DNA from: Oscillospiraceae bacterium
GTDB lineage: Bacteria > Bacillota > Clostridia > Oscillospirales > Oscillospiraceae
Direction of reading: 5' to 3'
DNA: 24,000 nucleotides
NCBI GenBank assembly: GCA_910575505.1
Contig: CAJTFK010000014.1
Coordinates: 79,540 to 103,539 of the forward strand
The notes under the pieces were generated by a model. The model did no database searches. It was given only the letters and a program-made list of their open reading frames with translations, and was not told where the DNA came from. Shown piece by piece: positions 1,801 through 23,021 of the stretch (the first letter of the stretch is position 1; each line of letters starts with the position of its first letter). A program made the translations under genes and the position numbers.

Positions 1801-1840
1801 AAGATAGCCTCACGCCAGCGGCGTGGGGCTATCTTCTCTT
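1801..1840. terminator. Hairpin between convergent genes (adh on +, XRE gene on -); probable bidirectional terminator
   Basis: The arm aagatagcctcacgc(c) at 1801-1816 pairs with gcgtggggctatctt at 1821-1835 (15 bp including one G-U), with a 4-nt loop. The flanking T/A runs are weak on both sides. Confidence 0.5.
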
Positions 1841-2168
1841 AGCGAGTACATTCAATCGCTTCATCTATGATTTTTAGAATATGCGGCATTTTTTCAGCCG
1901 GAACAGCTTTCAATTTCTGTATGACATATTCAAAGCTGTCTGGAGTCCTCCCAAACAATAAGGTGTCTGCGGAAAGATTGAGGGCCACGGCAAACGCCCG
2001 GATAGACTCAGAGGACAGGCCGGAACGGCCACGTTCCACTTCCTGAATAAAGTTAGCACTATAACCAGACAATTTCGCCAAGTCCTCACGAGTCATTTTC
2101 TGGGCTGTCCGTTCGTTTTTGATTCTGGCTCCGATTTCTATATTGACGTCTTTCAATTTCCTAGCCAT
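1839..2168 (-). CDS. XRE-family helix-turn-helix transcriptional regulator
   Basis: 109 aa. IGARIKNERTAQKMTREDLAKLSGYSANFIQEVERGRSGLSSESIRAFAVALNLSADTLLFG is a canonical HTH_3/Cro-C1 pattern. RBS AAGGTGG lies upstream on the minus strand. Confidence 0.8.
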   Translation of the reverse strand: MARKLKDVNIEIGARIKNERTAQKMTREDLAKLSGYSANFIQEVERGRSGLSSESIRAFAVALNLSADTLLFGRTPDSFEYVIQKLKAVPAEKMPHILKIIDEAIECTR

Positions 2169-3320: not shown

Positions 3321-3668
3321 TTATAGATCCTCTTCAATACCGCCAAATTTCAGTATCCCTCGAATCAAGTCCTCTATTTCAATGAACTGCTGATCAGATA
3401 AAGGCTTCAATAAAGAAGAAATATGAAGGCAGTCAATATCAGATACTTGTCCAGTTAATAAGAAATCTGTACTGATACATAATGCTTTTGATACTTTAAC
3501 TATACTTTCCGCCCGAATATTTTTTCTTCCAGTTTCAACACTTGCAAAAAACTGTTGAGTTAGTCCCGCTTTTTCGGCAGCCTGCTCTTGTGTCAAGCCA
3601 AGCTGATTTCTCCGACTAGCGATACGCCGTCCTATTTCGATTGCAAGTGGACTTTTATTTTCTGCCAT
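3321..3668 (-). CDS. XRE-family HTH transcriptional regulator
   Basis: 115 aa. IGRRIASRRNQLGLTQEQAAEKAGLTQQFFASVETGRKNIRAESIVKVSKALCISTDFLLTG is a canonical HTH_3 pattern. It is divergent from the 3780 operon. The inverted repeat CCTCTAT...ATAGAGG (3674-3701) overlaps its RBS region. Confidence 0.8.
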   Translation of the reverse strand: MAENKSPLAIEIGRRIASRRNQLGLTQEQAAEKAGLTQQFFASVETGRKNIRAESIVKVSKALCISTDFLLTGQVSDIDCLHISSLLKPLSDQQFIEIEDLIRGILKFGGIEEDL

Positions 3669-4446: not shown

Positions 4447-4842
4447 ATGGTTGAAGAACGAGTCCTGCAAATCTTGACTGAACAGCAGCGTGAGGTATAT
4501 CTGCTTCGCTAGGATGGCATGACCTGTAAGGAAATTGCCGAAAAAATAAATGCTCCGGCAAGCAGAGTCACCTCTTGCCTCAAACACGCAAAACGCAAGA
4601 TAGCCGAATATGAAAGCTATCATGCTCCCGGCGCAAACAACGACGCCCCCTTGGACTTTCCCATGACGGCTGGCGAATTGCGGCTCGTGCTGGAGGGGCT
4701 GGATATTCTCAAACGGGACATGGAGAGTGACGTCCACAGGAGGCTCGGAACCGACTGGCAGGGATGCCTTCCCTATTCCTATCAAATCGCGGATGATTTG
4801 ACGATTCGCCTGTTGGACGCTCTACAAAAAAATGAAACGTAA
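4447..4842 (+). pseudogene. Sigma-70 region-4-like HTH gene interrupted by an in-frame TAG (4510-4512); the downstream part 4519-4842 may still be expressed
   Basis: ATG 4447 and ATG 4519 are in the same frame. The joined translation MVEERVLQILTEQQREVYLLR*DGMTCKEIAEKINAPASRVTSCLKHAKRKI reads as one continuous r4-type HTH, with the stop at a normally sense position. Confidence 0.5.
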
Positions 4843-4852
4843 GGAGCCCCTT

Positions 4853-5872
4853 ATGCAAAATCAGCAGAAGCCGGTAATTGGTCACTACGCCTTTCTTTAC
4901 GCCTGCCAGTTTGGCCCATTCCGCTCCAAAGGAGCCAAGTACATCGCACAGATTCTGCGGCGGTATGCTGATAACAATTTTTCCGCAGGTGCTTCGGAAT
5001 ATAAGCGGTTTATTGAGGATTCTGCGGCGGAAAAGGGCCTCCGGCCAACCAGTTTTAGGCGGACCATTCAGCGGTATATAGAAAAGGGCTGGAGTCTGGA
5101 TTATGCCAAGAGCTGGGAGACCTATACCGGCTGGAAACAGAATTTCCCACCTAAAACGAATACCGCAATCAGGCTCATCTGCGAGTCCTTCACAGCCTTT
5201 ATGAAAAGCTGGGTTTTTACTGAGGGAAAGCAACGCTTCTATGTTCAGACGTCCATTGAAGAAGATCAGGAGGGGGAAAGCACGCCCTCATTGGAGCACG
5301 AATTTTTCTTAGACGAAATATCCTCGCATACCCACTATGCCACCTTCGACGATCCAGAGGAGCTTCGCACTTACGTGTGGTATCTCACATATCGGGTTCA
5401 AAAGGATTTTTACAACCTTTGTATAGAGAGCAAGGCTCTGGTGGATTGTCCATGGCAGGATTTTGTCCTTGGAATGCGCGGAAGCAAAGAGACTCGGGAC
5501 TCCGCCGCATTTGTTTTGCGCAAAACCATAGAGGAATTTCTAAGTCACGCCTATTTTAACTTTGACAAAAAGGAGCCAGAACTGCTTGACGACAGTGATG
5601 ACCCGTTCGCAGGAACAGATACTATGAACTGTGCAAAGCTGATTTCTTACGATGAAGGCTGTGGCCTGATAGATGCGATCCTTTTGCAGGCAGAGTTTGT
5701 CCAGTACCGACGCCAGCTGAACCAGGGCAAGGACTACTCCTGGGAACAATACATTGAAGAACTATTGCAGGACAAACAAATGTGGCGCGAGATAAAGTTG
5801 GCCTTTCTCGACGCCCTGGACCGACTGGATTTCAGGGCAGTGTGGGAGTCAGAGGAATTACAGGGAGGATGA
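4853..5872 (+). CDS. Hypothetical protein
   Basis: The long ORF is listed from 4832, but AAGGAG at 4841-4846 followed by ATG 4853 is the better start. No recognisable motif. Confidence 0.5.
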   Translation: MQNQQKPVIGHYAFLYACQFGPFRSKGAKYIAQILRRYADNNFSAGASEYKRFIEDSAAEKGLRPTSFRRTIQRYIEKGWSLDYAKSWETYTGWKQNFPPKTNTAIRLICESFTAFMKSWVFTEGKQRFYVQTSIEEDQEGESTPSLEHEFFLDEISSHTHYATFDDPEELRTYVWYLTYRVQKDFYNLCIESKALVDCPWQDFVLGMRGSKETRDSAAFVLRKTIEEFLSHAYFNFDKKEPELLDDSDDPFAGTDTMNCAKLISYDEGCGLIDAILLQAEFVQYRRQLNQGKDYSWEQYIEELLQDKQMWREIKLAFLDALDRLDFRAVWESEELQGG

Positions 5873-8585: not shown

Positions 8586-9242
8586 ATGGATGTGAAACGA
8601 TGGACGCTTGCCCTGATGGTAATTCTGCTGTTTATCCTGACCGGATGCGAAGCAAAACCAAGCACCGCCCCGGACGTTGATGTCAGGTATTCCTCCGCCA
8701 CATCAACAGAGGATTGTTATTTGTGTGGTGGTGGCATTGAAAACCTGGTTCCGTCGTATTGGGGACAGAACAATATTGCGCTCATCAGCCTAAATACTTT
8801 TGAAATAATACCTCTTGAAATTAACCGCTATGATAGGCTGGATGGACGGCTGATTGAGGAATATGCCGGTACGGTATCTTTCGGGGGCGGCGGCAGCGTT
8901 GACAATGGATTTTCCGCCAGATTATTGTTAGACTATGATAGAGGTTACGCCATGGGTTCTCTGTATTTTTATGATGACAGGAAGTTGGATACAGCCCGGG
9001 TCTCGTCTTTCCTATGTGAGAAGTGTCTGAATGAGATATTACCACAGAATATTGAAACATGCTTTGGCGTTGGAGCTGTTAATCTTGCCACGAGAAAAAT
9101 TCAGATATTTGAGGAAAATATTAGTGGATTTTCCCTTGATGACTTTTTTGTTGGCTGCAATTTAAAAGAAGCGGACAGAGATTCGTGCTGGATGGATCTT
9201 CTAATCTTCTTCTGCCCGGTGCGATATGAAAAAGAACCTTAA
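8586..9242 (+). CDS. Putative lipoprotein
   Basis: The N-terminus (MD)VKRWTLALMVILLFILTGCEAKPS has a signal peptide with the lipobox LTGC. The GTG at 8592, 6 nt after GGAGG (8581-8585), is a plausible alternative start. Confidence 0.65.
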   Translation: MDVKRWTLALMVILLFILTGCEAKPSTAPDVDVRYSSATSTEDCYLCGGGIENLVPSYWGQNNIALISLNTFEIIPLEINRYDRLDGRLIEEYAGTVSFGGGGSVDNGFSARLLLDYDRGYAMGSLYFYDDRKLDTARVSSFLCEKCLNEILPQNIETCFGVGAVNLATRKIQIFEENISGFSLDDFFVGCNLKEADRDSCWMDLLIFFCPVRYEKEP

Positions 9243-9294
9243 TAAGGATTCTTTTTCATGGATTTTGAGGAACACAAGCAATGGAGGATGACTT

Positions 9295-9552
9295 ATGATA
9301 TCGGAAGAAAGGCTGAAGGAGGCGGCAAGGAGGTGTGAGGAGCACATGCTGAACTGTTTGCCTGATCCAAGCGAGTGCAAGGCTACATTTTCCCCCCGAT
9401 TTGAGCAGAAGATGAAAAGGCTCTTTTTCAAAATAAACCAGCCCTTGCTTTTTTGGATATCGGGAATTATTGCGTCCCGCTTCCTGTTACTTTTACTTGC
9501 TGTTTGCGGTGTGCTTGTTTTCAATGCAACTGTACGTGCGTCAGTTTTCTGA
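9295..9552 (+). CDS. Small membrane-anchored protein (cytoplasmic N-terminus, single C-terminal TM)
   Basis: 85 aa with GGAGGA upstream. LLFWISGIIASRFLLLLLAVCGVLVF is a TM segment. The N-terminal ...FSPRFEQKMKRLF resembles N-termini of Clostridial anti-sigma-like proteins (weak). Confidence 0.5.
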   Translation: MISEERLKEAARRCEEHMLNCLPDPSECKATFSPRFEQKMKRLFFKINQPLLFWISGIIASRFLLLLLAVCGVLVFNATVRASVF

Positions 9553-9581
9553 TAGATACGAAAACCCATACCTCGAAAGAT

Positions 9582-9625
9582 AAAGAGACGGCTTTGTGTA
9601 TGAGCAAGGCCGTCTCTTTGAATTA
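9582..9625 (+). terminator. Hairpin terminator after 9295-9552
   Basis: AAAGAGACGGC (9582-9592) pairs with GCCGTCTCTTT (9609-9619). It is followed by a T-poor tail (gaatt). Confidence 0.5.
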
Positions 9626-9706
9626 AAATAATGTGCCAGCTCAAATGTAAAACGCATGGTTGTGGCGGGGATAGAAAGTCCACGTTTTGAGATGAGTAGC
9701 CAGTGT

Positions 9707-9735
9707 CTGCGCAAGTCACGAGACTATGATAAAAT
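9707..9735 (+). promoter_or_regulatory. Candidate extended -10 promoter for the nuclease-RT operon
   Basis: TGaTAAAAT at 9727-9735 fits TGnTAnAAT. The -35 region is poor, so this call is speculative. Confidence 0.25.
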
Positions 9736-9853
9736 AGAAACACTTAGAGACAAGGTCGGAGAAAGAAATATCTTTACAGGCTCCATCATCCGGCAGAAAA
9801 CAGAGCCATCATCCTGAAACGATGGAGAGGCTTGACTAGAGGAGGTCTGTTCA

Positions 9854-12700
9854 ATGAAGATCATAAGCTGGAACGTAAATGGAATTATAGCCTGCCGTAG
9901 GAAAGGTTTTTTACGTTTTTTGGCAGATACAAAACCGGATGTTATGTGCTGCCAGGAAGTCAAGACCAAGTGCGCTCTGAACACTCCCGGATATCAGCAG
10001 TTTTGGAATCCCGCCCTGCGGTCAGGGTATTCCGGCACATTGATTCTGGCAAAGCAGGAACCGTTATCGTGGTCCACGGGATTTGGAAACAGCAAATTTG
10101 ATGAGGAGGGCCGCCTGATTACGCTGGAATATGCGGATTACTATATTATCAACGTATACGTTCCCAGCGTTCACCCCCACAACTCCCCAGACAGGCCGGA
10201 TTTTCGCCTGGAGTGGGACGAGGCCCTGCGGGAATATATCGCCAATCTGCCGAAACCCGTTGTTTTGTGCGGCGATTTTAACGTAACCCACGCTTACATT
10301 GACAGCTATCCCGAGAACGGAAAAAATGAGCCGGACAACCCGCTTTTCCGCTCAGAGGTACGGGATGGGTTTGACAAACTTCTCGCTGCTGGAGTCGTTG
10401 ACGCCTTTCGGGTATTGAATCCGAACAAAGAAGGAGCCTATACATGGTGGGGACCGAAAAATAAGAACCGCGCCGAAAATCGCGGTTCGCGGCTGGACTA
10501 TTTTCTCGTTTCCGGGGAGTTGTTGTCTTTCGTGCAAAGTATCCGATTTCACAAGGACATCCTCGCCTCCGACCACTGTCCCATTTCCATGCTTTTTTAT
10601 CCGATAAGGCCAAAGCGGGAACTAGACGACGAGGATATGACCGCTATTTGGAGCTCCATTGATTGGGACCGCCTGACGGGCATTCTATTGCTGCTGCAGC
10701 AGGATCTGGCTTACGCCGCCTATAACCGGGAGTGGGACAAGGTAGACCTGCTGCAACGCCAACTGGTAGGCTCCTGGGCGGCGCGTGCACTGGCCGTGAG
10801 AGAGGTTCTGAATGGCAGCGGTTCGCCGGGAGTGGATGGCGTTCGCTGGACTACTGACGCTCAGAAAGCGAAAGCCGCACAGTCTTTGACCGCAAGGGGC
10901 TACCGGCCCCTTCCATACCTTTACAGGGAGCTGGAGGAGCGCGGGAAAGTGCGGATCAACCTGATTCCAACCATGAAGGACCGGGCCATGCAAATCTTAT
11001 ACTCCTTCGCGCTGGACCCCGTTGCGGAATCAACAGCGGACAAGAAATCTTTTTTTGCCCGAAAAGGGCGTTCTCCCCTCGATCCCAATGCCCATCTGCT
11101 CCATGATCTTACTATGGAAAACGCGCCGACCTGGGTAGTCATCGCTGATGTGCAGACATTTTACGCTACCGTGGCGCATGACTGGCTCATTGAAAATATC
11201 CCGATGGATAAAACTGTGCTGCGGAAGTTTCTAAAGGCGGGGATGGTAAGGAACGGAGAGCTGTTTCCAACAGATAAGGGGATGTCCATGGCCTCCGCCT
11301 TGTCTCCTAAATTAGGGAACATGATGCTGGATGGACTGCAATCCTACATTTATGACCGACTCTATCCCTCTGGCGGCGTGGACTACCCAAACGGGAATTT
11401 AAACCGGCTTTTGGACGATATGGTGATAACTGCTCGGGACCGCACACAGGCCGAGCTGATCATGCAGATCGTAGAAGAATTTCTTGCTTGCCGAGGACTG
11501 CGGCTTCATCCTGAAAAGTCTTATATCACCAACGTTTATGAGGGTTTCGATTACATTGGCAGACACTATCAGTTTAAATACGGGCGTCTTTCCGTAAAGC
11601 CCGCTGAAAGTTCCATCATACAGTTTGAAGCAGAGCTGAAAAACCTTATCATGAACTTTTCAGGGACGCAGAGGGATTTGATTAAGGAAGTTAACTGGAA
11701 ACTGGCCGGGTGGGGACATTACCACCGTACAGAGGACGCTTATATGGATTTCAGGCATATTGATTCGATTGTTGAAGGGTTATTGGTCAAAAAGATGTGC
11801 ATGAAGTATCCGCGCTGGCACCGGAAAACCGTGTTAAATAAATTTTGGGTGAGAGACGGCTGGAATTATGTTTTTGTTTTACCAGCAGATCACTCGGTCA
11901 GAGTAAACCGTCTGGCTCCTCTGCCAATTATGCAGCACAAACCATGCCGGTTAAATTTTAATCCATATCTGGATCAGGATTACCAAATCTACCTTCAGCA
12001 TCGTCGGAACATTCAGAAAAGCAACGGAAAATACCGGGGAGTATGGACCCGGCAAAGCGGGCGCTGCGCGTACTGTGGAGCGAGGATGCTGGCCGATCAG
12101 GAGGTTGAGCTGGTTGAAAAGAATTTAGGGCAGGGCTGGAGCGCGAGAAATCTTCAATATGTACACCGGCAGTGCGGATATCAGGTGCAGTTCGGCGGCA
12201 ACGAAGTGAACGGGGAACATATTGACCTCTTCTCAATTCTGGAAGGGTTTGAAAATCATACTCCGGATGATGACTCTCCGTACATAGAATTGACCGAGTA
12301 TTTTCGTAAACACAAGCAGCCGGTCATTTGCCTGAAGTTCCAGGAGATCGAACGCATTTTGGGAGAGCACCTGCCCTGGGAGGCGTACTGTTTTGAGGCG
12401 TTCTGGTATGACGACACACAGGAGCTGAACTCTCCCATGTGGCGGTCTGAGGGGTTTCCATTTCATAAGTTCCTGTTTTCAGAGCAGAGCTTTAATATCA
12501 CTCATTCCTGGTTAAGCCAAGGCTACAAAATAAAAGCCCTGCATCTGGAAACAAGCCAAGTCACGTTCCGCAGGGAGGATAAAAACGCTTCCGGGGTGGT
12601 ATTGCCCAAAGCGTTGACCAATCAGCGTCTACCGGAGGAAGTAGTATATAAATTCAACAAAATGGTGCAGCAGTTTGCAAAAGACTATGGGCTGATATAG
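9854..12700 (+). CDS. Fusion protein: N-terminal ExoIII/APE-type (EEP) nuclease + group-II-intron-like reverse transcriptase (RT0-RT7 + thumb/X) + degenerate Cys/HNH remnant + uncharacterised C-terminal domain
   Basis: Uninterrupted 948-aa ORF with GGAGG at 9841-9845, 8 nt before the ATG.
EEP motifs: SWNVNG, CCQEVK (E35), GDFNV (D141/N143), RLDYF, ASDHCP (D240/H241).
RT motifs in order: SPGVDGV, YRPLPY...INLIPTMKDRAMQ, VVIADVQTFYATVAHDWL (D432), GMSMASALSPKLGNMMLD, LLDDMVI (D521/D522), LRLHPEKSYI...GFDYIGRHY.
Thumb-like: WKLAGWGHYH.
Cys motif: CAYC...HRQC (aa 738-774). Confidence 0.85.
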   Translation: MKIISWNVNGIIACRRKGFLRFLADTKPDVMCCQEVKTKCALNTPGYQQFWNPALRSGYSGTLILAKQEPLSWSTGFGNSKFDEEGRLITLEYADYYIINVYVPSVHPHNSPDRPDFRLEWDEALREYIANLPKPVVLCGDFNVTHAYIDSYPENGKNEPDNPLFRSEVRDGFDKLLAAGVVDAFRVLNPNKEGAYTWWGPKNKNRAENRGSRLDYFLVSGELLSFVQSIRFHKDILASDHCPISMLFYPIRPKRELDDEDMTAIWSSIDWDRLTGILLLLQQDLAYAAYNREWDKVDLLQRQLVGSWAARALAVREVLNGSGSPGVDGVRWTTDAQKAKAAQSLTARGYRPLPYLYRELEERGKVRINLIPTMKDRAMQILYSFALDPVAESTADKKSFFARKGRSPLDPNAHLLHDLTMENAPTWVVIADVQTFYATVAHDWLIENIPMDKTVLRKFLKAGMVRNGELFPTDKGMSMASALSPKLGNMMLDGLQSYIYDRLYPSGGVDYPNGNLNRLLDDMVITARDRTQAELIMQIVEEFLACRGLRLHPEKSYITNVYEGFDYIGRHYQFKYGRLSVKPAESSIIQFEAELKNLIMNFSGTQRDLIKEVNWKLAGWGHYHRTEDAYMDFRHIDSIVEGLLVKKMCMKYPRWHRKTVLNKFWVRDGWNYVFVLPADHSVRVNRLAPLPIMQHKPCRLNFNPYLDQDYQIYLQHRRNIQKSNGKYRGVWTRQSGRCAYCGARMLADQEVELVEKNLGQGWSARNLQYVHRQCGYQVQFGGNEVNGEHIDLFSILEGFENHTPDDDSPYIELTEYFRKHKQPVICLKFQEIERILGEHLPWEAYCFEAFWYDDTQELNSPMWRSEGFPFHKFLFSEQSFNITHSWLSQGYKIKALHLETSQVTFRREDKNASGVVLPKALTNQRLPEEVVYKFNKMVQQFAKDYGLI

Positions 12701-12703
12701 GAG

Positions 12704-13408
12704 GTGTTTCCTTTGCGGAAAAAGTTGCTGGTGATTGAGGATAATAAGCGAGTCCTTGAAATTCTGGCTTTCGCATTAGGCCGAGAGGGATATCAAATCA
12801 TCCGGGCTGACAGTGGGTCATATGGACTGCATCTGGCAAAAGAATATTTGCCAGATTTAATCATCATAGATTTAGAACGAAAAGAGCCAGGTAATTTTGA
12901 AATTTGCCGGGAATTGCGTGAGGCCGGAATCCACAAACCGATTTTGCTGTTTCTTTCCTCCGAAAAAGAAGCGGACATGCTGTCCGCGTTGGATTTGAAC
13001 ATTGGGTATATTCAAACGCCCTTTCACATGAAGGAGCTATTGATGCTGATTAACGTCAATATTTGGGACGTGAGTAGTGAAATGAACAGCGGAAATCCGG
13101 CACAATTCCTGGCCTTTGGGAGGATTGAGGTTGATACTGAACAGGTATTGGTTTTAAAGGACGGGCTGCCGATTGAGCTGACGCAAAGGGAATACGATTT
13201 GCTTTGCCGCTTGGCAAGCGAGCCAGGCAAAGTGTTCTCACGGGAGGAACTGCTTGAACTGGTATGGGGCTACACTTACATGGGTGATTCAAGGCCCGTA
13301 GATACAACGATCAGCCGTTTGCGGGAGAAAATCGAAGATGTCCCATCCCGGCCCAAAATCATTGTTGCCCGGCGGGGACGGGGATATGTATTTACGGGGA
13401 AAACTTAA
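12704..13408 (+). CDS. OmpR/PhoB-type response-regulator-like protein (atypical receiver + winged HTH); orphan, with no kinase in the window
   Basis: The receiver has LLVIEDN and DLIIIDL (Asp present), but the usual K-P-F reads T-P-F (YIQTPF). The C-terminal wHTH reads LTQREYDLLCRLASEPGKVFSREELLELVWG...VDTTISRLREKI...RGRGYVF. The AGGAGG at 12699-12704 overlaps the RT stop (TAG 12698-12700). The in-frame TTG at 12713, 8 nt after it, is a more likely start than GTG 12704. Confidence 0.8.
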   Translation: MFPLRKKLLVIEDNKRVLEILAFALGREGYQIIRADSGSYGLHLAKEYLPDLIIIDLERKEPGNFEICRELREAGIHKPILLFLSSEKEADMLSALDLNIGYIQTPFHMKELLMLINVNIWDVSSEMNSGNPAQFLAFGRIEVDTEQVLVLKDGLPIELTQREYDLLCRLASEPGKVFSREELLELVWGYTYMGDSRPVDTTISRLREKIEDVPSRPKIIVARRGRGYVFTGKT

Positions 13409-13681: not shown

Positions 13682-13833
13682 ATGGATATGAATTCTTCAG
13701 AGAAGGCATTCTCAGGGCCGTGCGGAAAGACGTGTGTTTTGCTGAGGACTCCAGGAATCAGTCTATGAACAGACCGTTCAAGGTGCTCGGTCCTGCCGTT
13801 GATTTGTTCAATTTTATGGAGGAGGCGAACGAT

Positions 13834-14142
13834 ATGATCCGAGATGATTACCACCGACATCCGCTGGTCTTTGCGCATGGTGTTCTGGGATTCGAGGGAT
13901 ATCCACAAGAAGGACTGTTCGCCGTTCCCGCAAATGGAGACAACAATTTCCTCCTTTATGGTATTGTTGAGCACTCTCTGCTGATCGTGGATCAAAAGCA
14001 GCCATTTGAGATGGAAAAGCTGAATATGTTCCAAACAGACACCATCATTCAAGGCAAAAAGCAGTTAAAGTTATCACTGACCCGCCTTAAAGGATTTCCG
14101 TACGTTGGACGGGTTATCATGGCAATCAGCAGATACGATTGA
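13834..14142 (+). CDS. Small hypothetical protein (102 aa) upstream of the ImmA-like gene
   Basis: GGAGGAGG (13818-13825) lies 8 nt before ATG 13834. It is co-directional with and abuts the ImmA-like gene, downstream of the consensus promoter. This is preferred over the overlapping minus-strand ORF 13570-14052. Confidence 0.45.
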   Translation: MIRDDYHRHPLVFAHGVLGFEGYPQEGLFAVPANGDNNFLLYGIVEHSLLIVDQKQPFEMEKLNMFQTDTIIQGKKQLKLSLTRLKGFPYVGRVIMAISRYD

Positions 14143-14156
14143 GGAGGGGGAGCAAG

Positions 14157-14909
14157 GTGCCATACCTAACCGTACAAGAAATAGAAGCCATCGCCCGGAG
14201 GGTTGTGACTGCATACAAGAAGCTGCCCTCTCTTTGTGGACAGCACGCGAATATCATTCAGCCGGATCTTTTGGTATGCGGGCTGCTTCGGCTGTCTGTT
14301 GAATACCATACACTCTCGATCAGTGGAACAATCCTTGGCCTCACAGCTTGCGGTGAAGTCGGCGTTCCCATTTACGACAGCCCCAATAAGCCTGAGTATT
14401 ATTTTTTGGACGGGAACACGGTCCTGATTGAAAAGAGCTTAACGGAGGAGACCGCCAATGTAGGTCGCCGTCATTTTACATTAATCCATGAGGCATGCCA
14501 CCAAATTTTCAGGATGCTGTTCCCTAAAGAATACATGGGCGCCATCGCACGGCGGCAGATCCATTATTGCCGCGAAACAAATTCCTCAAGAGTCGGGGAT
14601 TGGGAAGAATGGCGAACCAATAGACTGGCCTCAGCGGTATTGATGCCGGAAGATATGGTTCGGGAGAATATGGATGCTTTTGGGCTTGACGTACCGATGC
14701 GGATGGTGAACAGGGTGTTCGCCAGTATAGACTATACCCGCTTTTCGGACATGGCCGCTTATATGGGAGTTTCAAAGAAAGCCCTTTCCATACGGATGAA
14801 GCAGCTTGGGCTTCTGAAAGCCGATTATTTAGATGATCCATACGCTTTGGTTAATATCTATCCCCAGGAAGACGAGGTATACGAGGAGGACTGGTATGGC
14901 AAAGATTAA
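14157..14909 (+). CDS. ImmA/IrrE-family (M78-like) zinc metallopeptidase
   Basis: HEACH (HExxH) sits in the context RRHFTLIHEACHQIF, with a downstream ...ASAVLMPEDMV typical of ImmA/IrrE. The ORF is listed from TTG 14139, but GGAGG (14143-14147) followed by GTG 14157 is the better start. Confidence 0.75.
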   Translation: MPYLTVQEIEAIARRVVTAYKKLPSLCGQHANIIQPDLLVCGLLRLSVEYHTLSISGTILGLTACGEVGVPIYDSPNKPEYYFLDGNTVLIEKSLTEETANVGRRHFTLIHEACHQIFRMLFPKEYMGAIARRQIHYCRETNSSRVGDWEEWRTNRLASAVLMPEDMVRENMDAFGLDVPMRMVNRVFASIDYTRFSDMAAYMGVSKKALSIRMKQLGLLKADYLDDPYALVNIYPQEDEVYEEDWYGKD

Positions 14910-15129: not shown

Positions 15130-15183
15130 CAAATCGTGCCGCCGGACAACTACATAAAGAACAAACAAGGTTTGTGCCCCGGA

Positions 15184-15289: not shown

Positions 15290-15295
15290 ATTTTT

Positions 15296-16367: not shown

Positions 16368-18284
16368 ATGAATGATTATAACAGGCAAAACTCCCATAAC
16401 AAGATTGACCATATTTTCAAGGATCTACTTCCGGCTCAGGGAATGCCGGAGCGCCCGGAGCAGATCGCCCTGAGCCATCGGATGCTGGAGGCCATGCAGG
16501 ACGGCGGCATCGCCCTCTGCGACGCCGGGACTGGCATTGGAAAGACCTACGCTTATCTCGTTGCCGCAACGGTTTTCCATAGCCTGCACCTCGCCCAGCC
16601 TATCCTCATTTCCACCTCCAGCATCGCCTTGCAGAAGGCCGTGCGGGACGAGTACCTGCCTCTTCTCTCCACTGTTTTGACAGAGGATGGAATGATCACA
16701 GAGCCCCTCCAAGCGGTAATCCGCAAGGGCAAATCCCACTACGTCTGCGACCAGCGGCTGGAACGGCGGCTGGGGCAGTTGGACCTCCGAAAGAAAAACT
16801 GGAGAGCCGGAAACGCCCTGCTTTCCCTGCGGGAGAGGCTGGACCTGGACGAAGCGCCCCGCCTCAGTGGTTATGACCGAGAGCGGGTGTGCGTCCCCAA
16901 TGTCTGCGACTGCCAGCGGGAAAACTGCCGGTACCGCGCCTTCCTGGACAGCTGCGACAGCGGTCAATTTCCCTTCCAAATTTGCAATCACAACCTTTTG
17001 CTGGCGGACGCCATCCACCGGGGAACAGGCCGTCAGCCCATCCTGCCGGACAGCCTCGCCGTCATCATCGACGAGGCCCACAAGCTGCCGGAAACAGCCC
17101 GGCAGATGTTCGGCGTTACCCTTCGGGCCGAGGACATCCAGGGCCTCATCCAGGACCTGCGGCGGGAAAAATATCTGCTGGCGGCAGACGCTCTGGCGGA
17201 CACCTCCCGTCTCTTCCTTCGGAAACTGGAGCGGCCCCACAACCCGGACCGGCGATTTTCCGAATACGCCCGTCTGCTGGTGGCCCCGAACCGGGCTCTG
17301 ACCGTGGTCCGAAAGCAGGTCAATCCCCTGCTCTCCGCCTCTACGCGCCGGCGCCTAGACAAGCTGGCCACCACTGTGGCCCTGTTCAGCGAGGGCCGCC
17401 CAGATATGGTCTTCTACCTGGCGGAGGACTCCCGTGACACCGTTATGCTCTGCGCCACGGTAGCAGACCTGACCGCACAACTCCAGAGCACCCTCTGGAA
17501 CCAGCCCAGGCCCATCATCCTCACCTCTGGCACTCTCGCCGTTGGCAGCGACTTTCACCGCTTCCGGGAGGAAGCGGGCCTGCTGGCGGACAGCCGGGTG
17601 ATGGAGTCTGTTTCGCTTTCCCCGTTTGACTATCGTGAAAACTGTCTGCTGTATGTCCCGCAGTTTCCGCCCGGTCAGAGAAACGAAGCGTATTACGACA
17701 GGCTTACCGACGAGATCGCCTTACTGCTGAACGCGGCCCGCGGCCATGCCCTAGTGCTTTTCACCTCCTACGCCGCCATGTCCGCCGTGAAGGAACGCCT
17801 GACGGCAAAGGAGCTTCTCTGGCCCATGTTCACCCTGGGCCGGAACGCAGTCCACACCACAGAGCAGTTCAAGGCCAGTCCTGGAAGCGTCCTGCTGGCC
17901 ACCGGGGCCGCCTGGGAGGGCTTCGATTTCCCCGGCGACTGCGTGTCCCTGCTGGTAATCCCCCGCCTGCCCTTCGCCCGCCCGGACGCTCTGAAAGAGA
18001 AGGAGCGGGAAGCCTTTCCGAACCTGCATTCTTTTATCCAGGCCATCGTCGTGCCGGAGATGCAGATCAAGCTGAAGCAGGGCTTCGGCAGGGCCATCCG
18101 TACCGAAACGGACACCTGCGTCGTCGCCATCCTGGACGAGAGGTCTGTCCCTGGGCAGCGTTACTTCGAGGATGTGAAAACCGCCCTGCCGGATATGCGG
18201 ATCACCGACAGCCTCCAGGATGTGGAGGCGTTCATCCGCAGCGTCAAGGGGCCGGATTACTTCCGGGAGGGCGGCGAATGGTGA
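16368..18284 (+). CDS. DinG/XPD(Rad3)-family ATP-dependent DNA helicase with an Fe-S cluster domain
   Basis: 638 aa. Walker A CDAGTGIGKTYAY, the DEAH box VIIDEAHKL, the Cys cluster ...YVCDQR...CVPNVCDCQRENCRYRAFLDSC..., and a C-terminal helicase region ...TSGTL...GAAWEGFDFPG.... Confidence 0.85.
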   Translation: MNDYNRQNSHNKIDHIFKDLLPAQGMPERPEQIALSHRMLEAMQDGGIALCDAGTGIGKTYAYLVAATVFHSLHLAQPILISTSSIALQKAVRDEYLPLLSTVLTEDGMITEPLQAVIRKGKSHYVCDQRLERRLGQLDLRKKNWRAGNALLSLRERLDLDEAPRLSGYDRERVCVPNVCDCQRENCRYRAFLDSCDSGQFPFQICNHNLLLADAIHRGTGRQPILPDSLAVIIDEAHKLPETARQMFGVTLRAEDIQGLIQDLRREKYLLAADALADTSRLFLRKLERPHNPDRRFSEYARLLVAPNRALTVVRKQVNPLLSASTRRRLDKLATTVALFSEGRPDMVFYLAEDSRDTVMLCATVADLTAQLQSTLWNQPRPIILTSGTLAVGSDFHRFREEAGLLADSRVMESVSLSPFDYRENCLLYVPQFPPGQRNEAYYDRLTDEIALLLNAARGHALVLFTSYAAMSAVKERLTAKELLWPMFTLGRNAVHTTEQFKASPGSVLLATGAAWEGFDFPGDCVSLLVIPRLPFARPDALKEKEREAFPNLHSFIQAIVVPEMQIKLKQGFGRAIRTETDTCVVAILDERSVPGQRYFEDVKTALPDMRITDSLQDVEAFIRSVKGPDYFREGGEW

Positions 18285-18497: not shown

Positions 18498-18863
18498 AAT
18501 GCAGTAAGAACAGTTTCTCGCACCGCTATATACTGCCGGGGCGGCAGCCACAAAGCGCAGGGCAGACTCTGCAAGGAAGAAATCCTTGCTCATGAGAACT
18601 GGACATTGGCGGACACATATGCGGATGTAGAAATTCCTGACAGCCAGATGCGGGGCTCTCGGACCGCTTTCAACCGAATGCTGGAGGACTGCCGGAAGGG
18701 AAAGCTCGACAAGATCGTAACCATGTCCGTCTCCCGGTTTGCCCGGAACCTCTCCGACGGCCTGACGATTCTGCGGGAACTGAGCGCCATGGGCGTGACC
18801 GTCCACTTCGTCATGGAGAGCATTGACACGGAATCCTTTCTGGCACAAGCTGTTCGGGAATAG
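18492..18863 (+). pseudogene. Truncated, degenerate serine-recombinase (resolvase) catalytic-domain fragment
   Basis: 123 aa. It aligns with the N-terminus of the next gene (YADV../YADE.., FNRMLEDCRKGKLDKIV/FNRMLSDCRKGRIDKVL, SRFARN/SRFSRN, GVTVHF/GVTVQF, IDTE). The nucleophile context YCRVST is replaced by YCRGGS plus an ~8-aa deletion. The ORF stops right after the catalytic domain. Confidence 0.6.
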
Positions 18864-18933
18864 TTCTGGATATCTCCGCCGGGGTATGGTACTGTTGGCG
18901 TTGCCAAAATGGAAGGGAGGCAAAAGCATGGCA
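18848..18933 (+). repeat. Direct repeat copy B (leader of the first full-length serine recombinase)
   Basis: See copy A. Both copies end in catggca (Met-Ala) and both contain ..agctgtNNgggaaTAG with a stop codon at the same position. Confidence 0.6.
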
Positions 18934-20484
18934 GCGAATGTGAAAATTATCCCGCCCAGAGAGAAGGAAGTCTCTGTTCTGCGGGTCGCCGCTTATTGCC
19001 GGGTCAGCACGGACCACGCTGAGCAGGCGCTCTCTTACGCCTCCCAAATCCGCAATTACACCGACCTCATCAATGGCCACGAGGGCTGGGAGCTTGTAGA
19101 CGTCTACGCTGACGAGGCGGTTAGCGGCACGAAAACAGACAAGCGGGAGGACTTCAACCGGATGCTTTCCGACTGCCGGAAGGGCAGGATCGACAAAGTC
19201 CTGGTGAAGTCCCTTTCCCGCTTCTCCCGGAACACGAAGGACTGCCTCGCCTCCCTGCGGGAGCTGATGTCCCTCGGCGTTACCGTCCAATTTGAAAAAG
19301 AGAATATCGACACGGAAACGCTCACCACGGAATTCCTGGTGAGCGTTTTCGGCGCTCTGGCCCAGCAGGAGTCCGTGTCCATCTCCGAAAACGGACGCCA
19401 GGGCTTCCGGCGAAGAATGGAGCTGGGCCAGTTCATCACCACCAAGCCGCCTTACGGTTACCGCCTCAAAGGCAGCGGGTGCCTGGAGATTATCCCGGAG
19501 GAGGCGGAGCTGGTGCGGTGGGTGTTCGACGCCTACCTCAGCGGCCACAGTGTTGGCTGGATCGTCAACGATCTCATCAGCCGGGGTGTCCTGGACCGCA
19601 AGGGCAATGTTCACTGGACCACCCGCCAGATTTACTACTGGCTGTCAAACGAAAAGTACATTGGCGATACCCTCTGCCAGAAAACCTATAAAACCGGATT
19701 TCCTTTCACGCAGAAGATCAACCACGGCGAGGTGGACCAAATCTACGTCGAGAGCTCCCATCCCGCCATCATCAGCCGGGAGACGTTTGAGAAGGCCCAG
19801 GCCCTCCGGCAGAGAAAAAAGCATCGCCGGGACCGCCCCGACGGCGTCTACCCGCTGTCCCGAAAAATGTACTGCGAGGCTTGCGGGGAGGCCCTCTACC
19901 GGAGATCTACCCGGAAGGGAACTGCCGCCTGGAGCTGCCGGAATCACCTGAGAAACGCCTCCTCCTGCTCCGTGGGGCCCATCCCGGAGGAAGCAATCCA
20001 CGCCGCCTTCGCGCGGATGTACAACAAGCTCCGGCTCCACGACGGCGTCATTCTCAAGCCCGCCCTGGGCCAGCTGGACGCTCTGAACGAGGCCCGCCAG
20101 CGGAACAATCCCGCCATGCTGGCAGTGAACAGGGCCATCGCCGAGGCGTCCGACCAAAGCTATAAGGTCAGCGCCCTCCAGAGCAAGGGCGTTCTGGACG
20201 CCTCCGCCGGGGCCGCCAAGCTGCGGGAACTCGATGGCCGTCTGGCGGAGCTTCGGAAGGAGCGCCGCCGTCTGCTTAAGGAGGATGACCTGGAGGAAGC
20301 GCTGGACTCCTTTCGCCAGACAGTCAGTAAGATTCACAGCGGGCCGGACCACCTGGAGGACTTCGATGAAACCCTGTTTTCCGATCTGGTGGAGAAGGTC
20401 ACGGCGGAGTCTCGCTCCCGTATCCGCTTCCACCTCCGGGGCGGCATCGAACTGGCGGAGCGGGTTCAGGAGGATAAAGCATGA
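18928..20484 (+). CDS. Large serine recombinase (first of triplet)
   Basis: The start at ATG 18928 follows GGAAGGGAGG (the ORF track extends upstream to 18823). Motifs: VAAYCRVSTD, YADEAVSGT, SLSRFSRNTKD, a recombinase domain ...PPYGYRL..., a zinc ribbon CEACGEALYRR...WSCRNH...C and a C-terminal coiled coil. Confidence 0.9.
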   Translation: MAANVKIIPPREKEVSVLRVAAYCRVSTDHAEQALSYASQIRNYTDLINGHEGWELVDVYADEAVSGTKTDKREDFNRMLSDCRKGRIDKVLVKSLSRFSRNTKDCLASLRELMSLGVTVQFEKENIDTETLTTEFLVSVFGALAQQESVSISENGRQGFRRRMELGQFITTKPPYGYRLKGSGCLEIIPEEAELVRWVFDAYLSGHSVGWIVNDLISRGVLDRKGNVHWTTRQIYYWLSNEKYIGDTLCQKTYKTGFPFTQKINHGEVDQIYVESSHPAIISRETFEKAQALRQRKKHRRDRPDGVYPLSRKMYCEACGEALYRRSTRKGTAAWSCRNHLRNASSCSVGPIPEEAIHAAFARMYNKLRLHDGVILKPALGQLDALNEARQRNNPAMLAVNRAIAEASDQSYKVSALQSKGVLDASAGAAKLRELDGRLAELRKERRRLLKEDDLEEALDSFRQTVSKIHSGPDHLEDFDETLFSDLVEKVTAESRSRIRFHLRGGIELAERVQEDKA

Positions 20485-21236
20485 ATCGAAAAATTTTGTA
20501 CGGCTACCAGATTCAGGACGGAAAACTGGTCCTTCAGCCCCAAGAGGCCGAGGTAGTGAAACGGATATTCTCCATCTACCTGGAGGGGACCTATCAGTGG
20601 AAAATTGCGGACATTCTGAACGACGACGGCGTCCTGTACAGCCAGGAACGCCCTCAGTGGACCATGCACCGGGTGGGCTACATTCTGAAAAATCCCCGCT
20701 ACATGGGTGCCGACGGCTACCCCGCCATCATTGATGTCATGACCTTCCAAACGGCACAGGAAATCATTCAAAAACGGAAAAAGACCGTTCGCAGATCGGA
20801 CCGCCCAGCCCTTCGATACCGGGAAAAGCTGCGCTGCGGCAAATGCGGTGGCCCCCTAAAGCGGCGGTTCAGCGGACGGAAGCGAAAGGATACGCTGTAC
20901 CTTCAATGCGAGGGCTGCGGAGTCAGGACGGAAATCAAAGATGCCGATTTCCTGGCGGAAGTGGAGCGGCAGACGGCGGCGCATACGCCCTCGGAACAGC
21001 CCTCCACAGCCTATGAGCCGTCCGCCGATGCGGTCCGCCTGACCAACGCCATCAACCGGGGGCTGGAGCGACCAGACCAGCCGGAAGAAATCGTGAAATT
21101 GATTCTCCAAGGCGTTTCCGCCCGGTACGACTGCTTCTCACAGGAGGCCAATCCAATCGATATCCATGGCGAAAGAGCCATTCAATATATCACCGTCTCT
21201 GCGGACAACGCGGTGACGGTGACCTTCAAAGGATAG
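20481..21236 (+). CDS. Recombinase-domain + zinc-ribbon protein lacking the resolvase catalytic domain (second of triplet)
   Basis: 251 aa, starting directly at the recombinase-domain motif ILYGYQI. It contains CGKCGGPL...LQCEGCG. Its ATG overlaps the upstream stop (ATGA, 20481-20484). Confidence 0.75.
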   Translation: MNRKILYGYQIQDGKLVLQPQEAEVVKRIFSIYLEGTYQWKIADILNDDGVLYSQERPQWTMHRVGYILKNPRYMGADGYPAIIDVMTFQTAQEIIQKRKKTVRRSDRPALRYREKLRCGKCGGPLKRRFSGRKRKDTLYLQCEGCGVRTEIKDADFLAEVERQTAAHTPSEQPSTAYEPSADAVRLTNAINRGLERPDQPEEIVKLILQGVSARYDCFSQEANPIDIHGERAIQYITVSADNAVTVTFKG

Positions 21237-21263
21237 CGTAAGCCTACCGGGAAAGGACAGATT

Positions 21264-22901
21264 ATGGAACAGACTGTACGAGAAAAGCGAATACGGATCA
21301 TTCCCGCCACCAAGGAAAAAACGCCCGTCGGAGGCCCCTCTGGAAGGAAGCTGCGGGTGGCCGCTTACTGCCGGGTCTCCACCGACAGCGAGGAACAGCT
21401 CACCAGCTACACCTCTCAGAAGGAGTATTATACGCAGAAGATCGGAGAGAACCCTGATTGGGAATTTGCCGGAATTTTTGCCGACAGGGGCATTACAGGC
21501 ACCAGCATGAAAAAGCGGGCGGAATTCAACCGCATGATTGCCGCCTGCAAGCGAGGCCGCATTGACCTGATCCTCACCAAGTCTCTCTCCCGCTTCGCTC
21601 GGAATACGGTGGACTGTCTAGCCACCGTCCGTATGCTGAGAGGCCGGGGCATCGGGGTCCACTTCGAAAAGGAAAACATTAATACGCTCACGGAGGCCGG
21701 CGAGTTTATGATCACGCTGTTCAGCGGCTTCGCCCAGGCGGAAAGCGAGTCCATCCGGGGCAGTGTGATCTGGGGCATTCTGAAAAGCCGGGAGGCGGGG
21801 AACGTGCCCTTCCAATATACACGGCTGCTGGGCTACCGCCGGGGAGCGGACGGTGAGCCCGAGATCGACCCGGAGGAAGCGGAGGTGGTGCGGCGCATTT
21901 ATCGCCGGTACCTGGACGGGGCCAGCATCTTTGGGATTCAAAGAGAACTGGAACAGGAGCATGTCCCAACCGCCACCGGAGTGAAGCAGTGGTCCTGGCA
22001 GACCATCCACAATATTCTCACTAATGAGCGTTATATAGGTGATGCCCTGCTGCAAAAGACCTATACCACCGACTGCATCAGCAAAAAAATAGTGAAGAAC
22101 ACCGGCGAATTTCCGATGGTTTATGTGGAGAACAACCATCCGGCGATTATCTCCAGGGATATGTTCTATCAGGCGAAGGCGGAGATGGCCCGCCGTGCCA
22201 GTAAACGGAAGGTCATGCAGAAGACCGGCAAAACGGAGCAGGGGAAGTATTCCTCCAAGTACGCCCTCAGTGAACTGCTGATCTGCGGGGAATGTGGGAC
22301 GCCCTATAAGCGCTGCACCTGGGCCAGAAACGGCAAAAAGCGTATCGTTTGGCGGTGTGTTTCCCGCTTGGAATTCGGGAGAAAATACTGCCATGACTCG
22401 CCCTCGCTGGACGAGGAAAAGCTCCACAGGGCCATCGTTGCCGCCCTGAACGAGTACGGCGCCATCCGGGCTGAGGTGAAGGCCGGGGTCCTGGAGCTGG
22501 CGGGGCTGGCGCAGAGCCACGACGAAGGCGGCGGTGCAAGCCTCCTGGAGTTGAAGCAGAAGCTGGACGCCCTGACGGTAGAGCAGGCCGTACTGCTGGA
22601 CAAGGTGCTGGAGGATATGGACAGCCTGGAGCTGAACGCCCAGCTCGAGGCGGTGACGGCGGAGAAACAGGATATTCTGGATCAGATGCAGGCTCTTGAA
22701 GAAGATAAAAGCCGGCGGAGTCTGCGGGCCTCCAGGCAGCGGGAGATGGAGGCGTGGCTGGAGCAGCAACCGTTGTGCTTTACGGAATATGATGATACGA
22801 TTACCCACAAGTTTATAGAACGGATCACGGTGGTGGACGCCGCTACCATTCGGATCAAAATGAAAGATATTGATGTGGTGATCAGCGAAGGGCTGTGCTA
22901 A
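21264..22901 (+). CDS. Large serine recombinase (third of triplet)
   Basis: 545 aa. Motifs: VAAYCRVSTDSEEQ, FADRGITGTS, SLSRFARNTVD, GIGVHFEKENINT, LLGYRR, CGECGTPYKR...WRCVSR...C and a coiled-coil tail. Confidence 0.9.
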   Translation: MEQTVREKRIRIIPATKEKTPVGGPSGRKLRVAAYCRVSTDSEEQLTSYTSQKEYYTQKIGENPDWEFAGIFADRGITGTSMKKRAEFNRMIAACKRGRIDLILTKSLSRFARNTVDCLATVRMLRGRGIGVHFEKENINTLTEAGEFMITLFSGFAQAESESIRGSVIWGILKSREAGNVPFQYTRLLGYRRGADGEPEIDPEEAEVVRRIYRRYLDGASIFGIQRELEQEHVPTATGVKQWSWQTIHNILTNERYIGDALLQKTYTTDCISKKIVKNTGEFPMVYVENNHPAIISRDMFYQAKAEMARRASKRKVMQKTGKTEQGKYSSKYALSELLICGECGTPYKRCTWARNGKKRIVWRCVSRLEFGRKYCHDSPSLDEEKLHRAIVAALNEYGAIRAEVKAGVLELAGLAQSHDEGGGASLLELKQKLDALTVEQAVLLDKVLEDMDSLELNAQLEAVTAEKQDILDQMQALEEDKSRRSLRASRQREMEAWLEQQPLCFTEYDDTITHKFIERITVVDAATIRIKMKDIDVVISEGLC

Positions 22902-22914
22902 GCGAAGCATGAGG

Positions 22915-22970
22915 AAAGAGCGCAGGACCGGAGAGGCAAACGCCGACTCCGATCCTGCGCTCTTTGCTTA
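22915..22970 (+). terminator. Long hairpin after the recombinase triplet
   Basis: AAAGAGCGCAGGA (22915-22927) pairs with TCCTGCGCTCTTT (22953-22965) in a perfect 13 bp stem. An inner CGGAG/CTCCG pairing is present. The tail is TTTGCTT. Confidence 0.6.
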
Positions 22971-23021
22971 TGCCCCAAAACGCCCGAAGCCATTGTGCTG
23001 CAACGGTTTTTGGTCTGCATC

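Follow-up and report, generated by a model that had tools for sequence, protein, structure and literature searches.

The nuclease-reverse transcriptase fusion gene and its domains

We analysed a stretch of 24,000 nt (hereafter the window) from an Oscillospiraceae bacterium (assembly GCA_910575505.1, contig CAJTFK010000014.1, positions 79,540-103,539, forward strand). It carries a complete gene (9854..12700, + strand) which encodes, in a single polypeptide of 948 aa, an exonuclease III (ExoIII)-type nuclease joined to a reverse transcriptase (RT) of the group II intron type. An earlier note, made from the sequence of the window alone, had described an uninterrupted reading frame with a good ribosome binding site; the frame indeed runs exactly over 9854..12700, stop codon included, and a GGAGG motif (9841..9845, +) is located 8 nt before the ATG. 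The protein comprises, from the N- to the C-terminus, an Xth/ExoA-type nuclease, a group II intron RT (RT0-7, X/thumb and D), a zinc knuckle resembling the endonuclease (En) domain of intron proteins, and a C-terminal region (CTD) with DUF7662. Pfam analysis detected Exo_endo_phos (aa 4-241, 2e-27), RVT_N (aa 266-345), RVT_1 (aa 363-569, 1.5e-20), GIIM (aa 591-665) and DUF7662 (aa 810-870). Of the profiles for which the note had proposed a search, Exo_endo_phos, RVT_1 and GIIM were matched, and Pfam and NCBIfam profiles together confirmed both halves of the proposed fusion of an EEP nuclease with a group-II-type RT. The motif positions given in the note were all correct, and the catalytic residues named there are invariant in 108 full-length homologs. 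An assembly artefact was rejected, since the identical 948-aa protein is recorded on 58 contigs from several sources.

The nuclease domain (9854..10591, +; aa 1-246) carries N7, N9, E35, D141, N143, D215, D240 and H241, all of which are invariant in the alignment of 108 full-length homologs, as is Y216. Every EEP catalytic motif listed in the note (SWNVNG, QE, GDFN, LDY and SDH) is therefore retained. The profiles place the N-terminus within the EEP family, and the catalytic residues align. Both marks of an exodeoxyribonuclease III (Xth/ExoA) are present, namely the full catalytic set and an equivalog-level score: the NCBIfam xth equivalog TIGR00633 gave 219.7 bits against a cutoff of 99, and TIGR00195 gave 210 against 182.6. 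End-to-end alignment with solved ExoA-type enzymes, at about 45% identity, scored 220 bits for 8IGI and 211 bits for B. subtilis ExoA (5CFE), and the APE1 and Mth212 structures scored about 170 bits each. The LINE-type model Exo_endo_phos_2 remained under its threshold (24.8 against 27.4), and L1-EN was not found among the structure matches of the nuclease. The pocket for the abasic (AP) site and the DNA-binding residues are mostly ExoA-like. While sharing the full-length alignment and all the catalytic residues with the housekeeping enzymes, the domain differs from them in its covalent or translational coupling to an RT, in its carriage on mobile elements, in the residue equivalent to APE1 W280, which is Ser in 82 of the 109 family members, and in the loop following the YVP motif, which is 2 residues longer than in ExoA-type enzymes. 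By all these comparisons, the nuclease is a cellular-type AP endonuclease/3'-exonuclease and not an L1-type endonuclease.

A linker (10592..10648, +; aa 247-265), which is also the truncation point of the copy at the related locus L006, leads from the nuclease to the RT. The RT consists of RVT_N with the fingers and palm (RT0-RT7; 10649..11578, +; aa 266-575), the X/thumb (maturase, GIIM) domain with its WKLAGWGHYH segment (11579..11893, +; aa 576-680) and a region colinear with the DNA-binding (D) domain of TeI4h (11894..12043, +; aa 681-730). The best RT match was this same TeI4h, a group IIB intron protein (PDB 6ME0), with 290 bits and E=3e-85, colinear over aa 264-780 and covering RT0-7, X, D and En. 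Other RTs gave 60-72 bits (group II), 55 bits (retron-type), 22 bits (LtrA) and 20 bits (Cas6-RT-Cas1), and plasmid-borne ltrA proteins matched the RT at about 35% identity. The score with the NCBIfam model group_II_RT_mat (TIGR04416) was 201.8 bits, below the cutoff of 300. The RT0 motif SPGVDGV and the thumb-like WKLAGWGHYH, both pointed out earlier, align with the equivalent motifs of TeI4h, and the palm aspartates reported as intact (D432, D521 and D522) are invariant in the 108 homologs. The LLDD motif had been correctly placed at the position of YADD. It is, however, peculiar to a small subclade: motif C reads FADD in 79, YADD in 18, WADD in 6 and LLDD in 4-6 of 109 sequences, and LLDD is restricted to the immediate relatives of the window protein. 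A parallel between LLDD and the YIDD adaptation of G2L4, a free-standing group II-like RT, was considered and dropped because the family consensus is FADD/YADD.

The C-terminal Cys motif seen earlier is present, and its description could be refined. It forms an En-like, HNH-derived zinc knuckle (12044..12184, +; aa 731-777) in which W731, C738, C741, D748, E755, G759, G761, N766, Y769, H771 and C774 are invariant. When aligned with TeI4h (CPVCG...EIHHILP...NLVLIHANCH), the window protein reads CAYCG...VE---LVE...NLQYVHRQCG, that is, the CxxC...N...HxxC framework is kept and the catalytic His-His pair of HNH is absent. The same was observed in 109/109 fused sequences and in the sampled relatives with separate nuclease and RT genes (split forms, below), and the lineage is therefore without a recognisable HNH catalytic centre. 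Judged from this alignment, the Cys motif is a remnant of the intron En (HNH) domain, now a zinc knuckle lacking the catalytic histidines.

The last ~150 aa, a DUF7662-containing region not recognised in the note, consist of two modules, each of which also occurs separately in other proteins. Module A is DUF7662 (12266..12487, +; about aa 805-878, with the Pfam match at 810-870), and module B has two strands and a long terminal helix (12488..12697, +; about aa 879-948); the boundaries of both are approximate. A first structural model of this region from 13 sequences was too poor (pLDDT 57), but an AlphaFold model from 118 sequences reached a pLDDT of 81.5. Foldseek searches of the latter against PDB and BFVD returned nothing below E 0.05; the weak matches were mostly winged-helix DNA binders, which is a hint only. 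A word-index search for CTD homologs gave family fragments only, and no mention of DUF7662 was found across RT surveys and full-text searches. The DUF7662 module occurs alone and as 8-12 tandem repeats in other proteins. Some proteins (P0149, 1167 aa; P0163, 1124 aa; L030 8001..11504) consist almost wholly of 8-12 tandem repeats, and the chromosomal surroundings of a tandem-repeat protein were ordinary and uninformative.

Conservation of the family and its split relatives

The genome search for the same fusion, suggested in the earlier note, revealed a large family with varying immediate neighbours. In a search space of 5.8 billion proteins, more than 100 full-length (~945-960 aa) cluster representatives had the same architecture, at 44-95% identity. 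Named matches came from Oscillospiraceae, Oscillibacter, Dysosmobacter, Lachnospiraceae/Hungatella and Peptostreptococcaceae of the mouse and human gut, and the database names of family members are only "exodeoxyribonuclease III" or "RNA-directed DNA polymerase". With the L002 copy (88% identical) as reference, the overall dN/dS was 0.07; by region it was 0.043 (RT palm), 0.071 (nuclease) and 0.070 (CTD), and all domains were within 0.04-0.2. All parts of the protein, including the RT of the LLDD subclade, are therefore under purifying selection, and both enzymes look active as far as conservation can tell. Against the copy at L001, dS was ~0.40 in the nuclease part and ~0.08 in the 3' part of the gene (9854-12697); this drop along the gene is indicative of recombination between diverged copies within it.

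Splitting of the ORF into separate nuclease and RT genes had been named in the note as a finding that would overturn the fusion. The ORF of the window is whole; natural split versions do exist, and in these the partnership is kept. An exhaustive HMMER search of 1.84 billion representatives with a CTD profile gave 590 matches, including RT-X-En-like-DUF7662 proteins without the nuclease, 666-740 aa in length. In 4/4 of these nuclease-less relatives that could be placed on contigs, an Exo_endo_phos gene of 245-256 aa was present directly upstream. The nuclease and RT genes overlap by 4-8 nt (ATGA-type) at L018, L019 and L028/L029, and lie 2 nt apart at L027. The split RTs are 33-37% identical to aa 254-947 of the fusion and carry FADD and the same histidine-less knuckle, and the split nucleases are 39-43% identical to the fusion N-terminus. 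Among full-length representatives at 50% identity, about 12 were fused and 11 split. The adjacent ExoIII gene in all four relatives shows that the nuclease-RT partnership is older than the fusion and extends beyond it. Together, the split and fused forms are Rosetta-stone evidence for the nuclease and the RT acting together. It is firmly supported by these comparisons that an intron-derived RT lineage without the HNH catalytic histidines depends on an ExoA-type nuclease, with both predicted activities conserved.

Genomic setting and signs of mobility

In the left part of the window, chromosomal CoA-transferase and Fe-ADH genes end near 1800 and are followed by a lower-GC island. The GC content falls from 0.56 to 0.40 right after the Fe-ADH gene (~1800-3700), which marks the probable left boundary of an integrated element. 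The island contains, 5' of the fusion, Xre HTH genes on the minus strand (1839..2168 and 3321..3668) along with LuxR/sigma-r4-like and uncharacterised genes, and, 3' of it, an orphan OmpR-type regulator, an ImmA/IrrE (CapP-like) peptidase, an HTH protein, a DinG-family helicase and three serine recombinases. At other loci, the neighbours were a relaxase, NikA/MobC, a Toprim primase, ParB and a tyrosine integrase (L009/L010); Arc repressors, a sigma-r4 protein and the serine recombinase triplet also present in the window (L011); a T4 coupling protein, a methyltransferase, a DprA/YpsA-like protein and type VII secretion system genes (L013-15); SLH surface-protein genes (L020); SSB, Fic and JAB/E1/E2 genes (L022); and RNase T, NrdD and a RecG-like helicase (L023). 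At L021, a gene of the anti-CRISPR family, AcrVA2-like (4746..5252), follows 37 nt past the fusion stop, and then a LexA/CI-like repressor at the border between element and chromosome. The split form at L028 lies between an orf9-like HTH gene and orf7/orf8-like (Sigma70_r4 and HTH_16) genes, upstream of a serine recombinase. The fusion is often in an operon divergent from the Xre-type repressors of the element. Going by these surroundings, the fusion gene is accessory cargo, with variable neighbours, of integrative/conjugative elements (ICEs) of gut Clostridia. The full fusion was found neither in PLSDB plasmids nor in INPHARED phages, where only intron RTs or stand-alone ExoIII were matched, and IMG/VR held only three partial copies. 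One match on a Salmonella plasmid (H1), which apparently reached the CTD, was rejected as an ordinary YADD/HNH intron protein.

The gene next to the fusion encodes an orphan OmpR-family response regulator (12713..13408, +) with a likely TTG start at 12713, an alternative GTG start at 12704 and a GAGG motif at 12701-12704. It is translationally coupled to the RT gene, with no histidine kinase nearby. The receiver Lys is replaced by Thr (QTPF) in the regulators of the window, L001 and L002, and the phospho-acceptor Asp is Asn in L008. The regulator is a conserved partner only in the subclade of the window (L001, L002, L007, L008, L024 and L025), and the pairing persists beside the decayed RT remnants of L007, L024 and L025.

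The absence of an intron around the fusion, stated in the note, was confirmed by Rfam, which detected group II intron RNA neither in the window at E<=1 nor in 7 other family loci at the gathering threshold. There is no room for a ribozyme 3' of the fusion, because the response-regulator gene starts 4-13 nt past the stop. At L011, an upstream ORF overlaps the start codon of the fusion gene, and at L003, L005 and L023 an intrinsic terminator directly follows the stop codon. The gene thus does not sit within domain IV of such a ribozyme, between DI-DIII upstream and DV-DVI downstream, its flanks being taken by coupled genes. All-vs-all blastn of the 500-nt flanks of 15 loci, carried out for shared 5' or 3' non-coding elements, gave matches only between close relatives. 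No tRNAs were found in the window, and a promoter/terminator scan of 9000-14200 remained at background level.

The RBS (9836) is where homology of the window to L001 and L002 sets in; in the case of L001 it extends 8.4 kb downstream, and in that of L002 as far as the stop codon of the regulator. These boundaries form a mosaic typical of cargo shuffling. The upstream stretch (9243..9853, 610 nt) is itself mosaic: 9440-9835 is common to L006 and not to L001 or L002, and at 9295..9552 there is a remnant ORF similar to part of a 232-aa protein whose gene lies elsewhere in L001 (3800..4498). The 610-nt gap was rejected as a conserved RNA, being a mosaic with a gene remnant.

The loci examined carry one copy per element, and damaged copies are frequent, with lesions of every kind. 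In L001, a CAG-to-TAG nonsense mutation at codon 760 (L001 12278-12280) removes the CTD. The 759-aa product of this allele is found on 53 contigs; the CTD-less allele is therefore widespread and not a sequencing error. A second copy in the same genome as L001 (L006, 491..2210) ends at aa 265 and continues into the C-terminal portion of a serine recombinase, an arrangement equivalent to a deletion of ~10648-22128 of the window; the 5' part of this copy is 97-98% identical to the window, closer than L001. At L007 (7856..10666), a 936-aa chimera joins an SLH/BNR surface protein in frame with the last 221 aa of the fusion (knuckle and CTD), followed by the response regulator; it probably arose by deletion within an SLH-gene/RT arrangement such as the one at L009. 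L024 and L025 are 5'-truncated, frameshifted remnants that still carry the regulator gene, and L026 has an internal deletion. The 5'-truncated copies were rejected as retrocopies because they keep the downstream gene and accompany other types of decay. The inspection of flanks advised in the note gave no conserved 3' ends, and no dispersed retrocopies with target-site duplications were seen among the contig loci examined. The lack of intron RNA, conserved flanks and retrocopy signatures argues against self-mobility, and it is unlikely that the fusion gene copies itself.

Several other features of these elements were observed. A 140-aa ORF overlaps the gene of the ImmA/IrrE (CapP-like) metallopeptidase by 4 nt (13720..14909), and the pair resembles an ImmR/ImmA or CapH/CapP damage-responsive switch. 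The DinG-family helicase (16368..18284) scored 292 bits with the type IV CRISPR DinG model, and CRISPR-Cas genes are absent from the window. Three tandem large serine recombinases and a fragment (20481..21236) occupy the end of the island (18823..24000) and run off the window. The triple recombinases followed by a metallophosphatase recur in L011 (9269..13271) and partly in L006. Rfam also detected a drum RNA (99.7 bits) at L009 13259..13372 (-), about 400 nt downstream of the fusion on the opposite strand, and a pemK RNA motif (73 bits) at L011 8027..8107 (+), downstream of the fusion; the window contains neither.

Relation to known enzymes and proposed function

The proteins of group IIB introns of the chloroplast-like lineage, such as Thermosynechococcus TeI4h, are colinear with the fusion from RVT_N/RT0 through En. 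Unlike these proteins, the fusion is without a ribozyme and without the HNH His-His, and has an N-terminal ExoIII and a C-terminal DUF7662. When compared with mobile group II introns, RT0-7 and X homology was found, but embedding in a ribozyme, a TIGR04416 score of at least 300 bits and a competent HNH En domain were not. The family does belong to the G2L in the broad sense, that is, RTs with group II affinity and no intron RNA, and it retains the X domain; to this concept it adds an obligate nuclease partner and a C-terminal region that is new. G2L4 of Pseudomonas aeruginosa, which functions in double-strand break repair by microhomology-mediated end joining (MMEJ) and in translesion synthesis, is a precedent for intron-less RTs as repair polymerases. 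G2L4 has YIDD at the active site and G2L5 has the active-site DD changed to DN. By these published definitions the present family is set apart from both, having FADD/YADD (LLDD in the window) and invariant D521/D522 with no DN. It also differs from G2L4 in its obligatory ExoIII partner, D/En remnants and DUF7662 CTD, whereas no nuclease partner is recorded for G2L4 in the paper and surveys searched. No G2L4 structure was among the PDB matches of the RT. PPRT (PrimPol-RT-CTD) of E. coli likewise has an N-terminal DNA-enzyme domain, a group II-like RT and a long CTD. With PrimPol instead of EEP at the N-terminus, another CTD and Proteobacteria as hosts, it is analogous, and the fused parts are not homologous.

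The layout had been likened to ORF2p of L1 elements, and the Pfam matches and the knuckle alignment confirm the same domain order as in APE-type non-LTR ORF2p (human LINE-1): an EEP/APE nuclease, an RT with RT0-like features and a C-terminal Cys/His knuckle. Motif C of LINE-1 is also FADD. In contrast to LINE-1, the fusion has a cellular Xth/ExoA nuclease, a group II-lineage RT and a bacterial host, and the dispersed copies, common 3' end or 3' UTR signature and target-site duplications of APE-type retrotransposons were not seen in the contig loci examined. The shared layout is best read as convergent, its components here being an ExoA of cellular type and a group II RT.

No ExoIII/EEP-RT fusion was described in the full-text searches, in the RT surveys of 2008-2022 (Simon & Zimmerly 2008; Toro & Nisa-Martinez 2014; retrons 2020; myRT 2021; Gonzalez-Delgado 2021; UG/Abi 2022) or in the PPRT preprint. 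For the known defence RTs (DRT/UG, Abi, retron and CRISPR-RT), neither a specific model match nor the partner genes nor the non-coding RNA were found. Profiles, PADLOC and literature thus support the earlier note, which had found no match to characterised bacterial RT systems, and its question whether the fusion is already a characterised RT class was answered in the negative for the literature searched. The conserved ExoIII-RT pairing probably marks a novel bacterial enzyme class in which a DNA 3' end is generated and subsequently extended. This sizeable and apparently undescribed class has as its defining trait an obligatory AP endonuclease/3'-exonuclease partner, fused or encoded in the adjacent gene. 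An intron-protein lineage without HNH catalytic residues that has an APE-type nuclease on the N-terminal side represents an architectural change proposed in the history of non-LTR retrotransposons, here studiable in bacteria. The class would also extend the theme of G2L4 and PPRT, domesticated intron RTs acting on DNA damage, to conjugative elements of abundant gut Clostridia, and an enzyme that, in one compact polypeptide, makes a 3'-OH in a DNA duplex and extends it with an RT would be of obvious interest for genome-writing tools.

The earlier note had left three options, a retroelement enzyme, a defence system and a repair enzyme. The split operons, the missing RNA and flanks and the ICE cargo setting narrow this choice without settling it. 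We tentatively favour, at somewhat less than even confidence, a domesticated intron RT with a partner nuclease that makes or cleans the 3'-OH extended by the RT, serving the DNA of the element or of the host. The ancestor would have been a group IIB-type intron-encoded RT that lost its intron and the HNH catalytic residues; the Xth/ExoA partner is fused to the RT N-terminus in the window family and is encoded by a separate adjoining or overlapping gene in sister lineages. The nuclease may incise at an abasic site or nick, or it may trim or clean 3' ends of duplex DNA that are recessed or blocked. The RT may extend the resulting 3'-OH, copying DNA or RNA by synthesis that displaces a strand or tolerates lesions, and binding of nucleic acid or of a partner is the probable task of the zinc knuckle and the DUF7662 region. 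Carriage on ICEs, usually in an operon divergent from Xre-type repressors, suggests as the likeliest role processing and repair, or gap-filling, of element or host DNA upon induction of the element or new transfer. Such repair or gap-filling is favoured by the damage-specific type of the nuclease, the lack of an RNA partner or retrocopy signature, the probably element-induced operons and the documented repair roles of G2L4, an intron RT and PPRT: AP-site bypass and break repair are on record for G2L4 and for an intron RT itself, and PPRT couples exonuclease activity to a group II-like RT and takes part in the oxidative DNA damage response and in phage defence. In this model the passage of the 3' end from one enzyme to the other is inferred, as are the kind of template and the biological role.

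Several points weigh against this proposal. The chemistry of making and extending a 3'-OH is shared with target-primed retroelements, and anatomy alone therefore does not separate repair from retro-insertion. The FADD/YADD motif and the conserved maturase X domain are as in mobile intron proteins and are not of the G2L type with its altered alanine position. Patchy cargo with frequent inactivation, as in the widespread 759-aa allele, is equally typical of defence or anti-defence genes, and at one locus an AcrVA2-like gene lies immediately downstream. DNA-repair genes were not consistent neighbours at the loci examined, and the CTD model has no assignable fold. Moreover, 3'-5' resection of the ExoIII type yields 5' overhangs, which is the wrong polarity for MMEJ of the G2L4 kind.

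A role in anti-phage or anti-plasmid defence, or in counter-defence, is the strongest of the rival readings but unlikely. Here the RT would sense or respond to an invader, for instance through cDNA, and ExoIII would be the effector that degrades nicked or damaged DNA of invader or host, in the manner of single-protein Abi/DRT-like systems on ICEs. Accessory mobile-element cargo with variable neighbours, patchy distribution and frequent inactivated alleles is consistent with this, and so are neighbours such as a methyltransferase with a helicase, JAB/E1/E2 and the AcrVA2-like gene; in DRT and retron systems, fusion of the RT with an effector is the norm, and PPRT, itself a fusion with a group II-like RT, has a described phage-defence function. 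PADLOC, however, matched only a generic RT model (86 bits), with partial UG4 (64 bits) and UG17 (50 bits) hits, and the NCBIfam Drt3a model gave 22 bits against a cutoff of 200. Further, no defence system was recognised among the neighbours in the window, no conserved non-coding RNA or flank was found, and the RT is of the intron type (FADD with X, D and En remnants) and not of the UG/Abi type. The nuclease is close to housekeeping ExoA (220 bits to a solved enzyme) and not obviously a toxic effector, and the UG/Abi and retron surveys mention no EEP partner.

Still less likely is that the enzyme is nuclease-primed in a LINE-like manner, with ExoIII nicking or opening DNA at lesions or nicks and the RT writing RNA sequence into chromosomal or mobile-element DNA, as RNA-templated repair or as trans-mobilisation of RNAs. 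If so, the family would be a present-day counterpart in prokaryotes, or a relative, of the transition postulated to have led from group II introns to non-LTR elements of the APE type, and a natural nick-and-reverse-transcribe editor. The version in which it is a target-primed retroelement enzyme is slightly more doubtful again. In that case ExoIII would nick the target, functionally replacing the missing HNH activity of the ancestral intron protein, and the RT would copy its own mRNA, the co-transcribed message, ORF-less introns or other RNAs. The APE-RT-Cys knuckle order of L1 ORF2p, the loss of the HNH histidines along with the gain of an APE-type nuclease, and the conservation of RT0, X/maturase, D regions and FADD/YADD as in mobile intron proteins would suit such an enzyme, as would the two copies in one isolate genome (L001 and L006), the several 5'-truncated copies (L007, L024 and L025) and the sharp homology boundaries of the RT-regulator cassette against L002. 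Yet none of the 8 loci searched has group II RNA, diverse members have no conserved non-coding sequence in common on either the 5' or the 3' side, and no target-site duplications or multicopy dispersal were seen. The truncated copies keep the regulator and have frameshifts, and with the 3'-truncated L006, the deleted L026 and the nonsense allele of L001 they point to ordinary decay and not to retrocopying with a 5' bias, L007 being explained by deletion from an L009-like SLH-gene/RT arrangement. The nuclease, too, resembles damage-specific ExoA and not the L1 endonuclease.

It is improbable that the main task of ExoIII is to assist, in an RNase H-like or second-strand function, an RT producing free cDNA or dsDNA from element RNA, in which case it would strip the RNA from RNA/DNA hybrids and would not act on chromosomal lesions. 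E. coli exonuclease III has RNase H activity, retroviral and other RTs pair with RNase H, and the nuclease and RT are obligately linked here; however, neither a candidate template RNA nor a conserved non-coding element was found near the gene, the AP-site pocket and DNA-binding residues are largely ExoA-like, and nothing points to a use for such cDNA. Some copies are damaged, but a chimeric assembly, or a decaying pseudogene in which a dead intron ORF was joined by accident to xth, can be dismissed, being refuted by the 58 contigs, the more than 100 full-length clusters down to 44% identity, the dN/dS of ~0.07 and the invariant catalytic residues.

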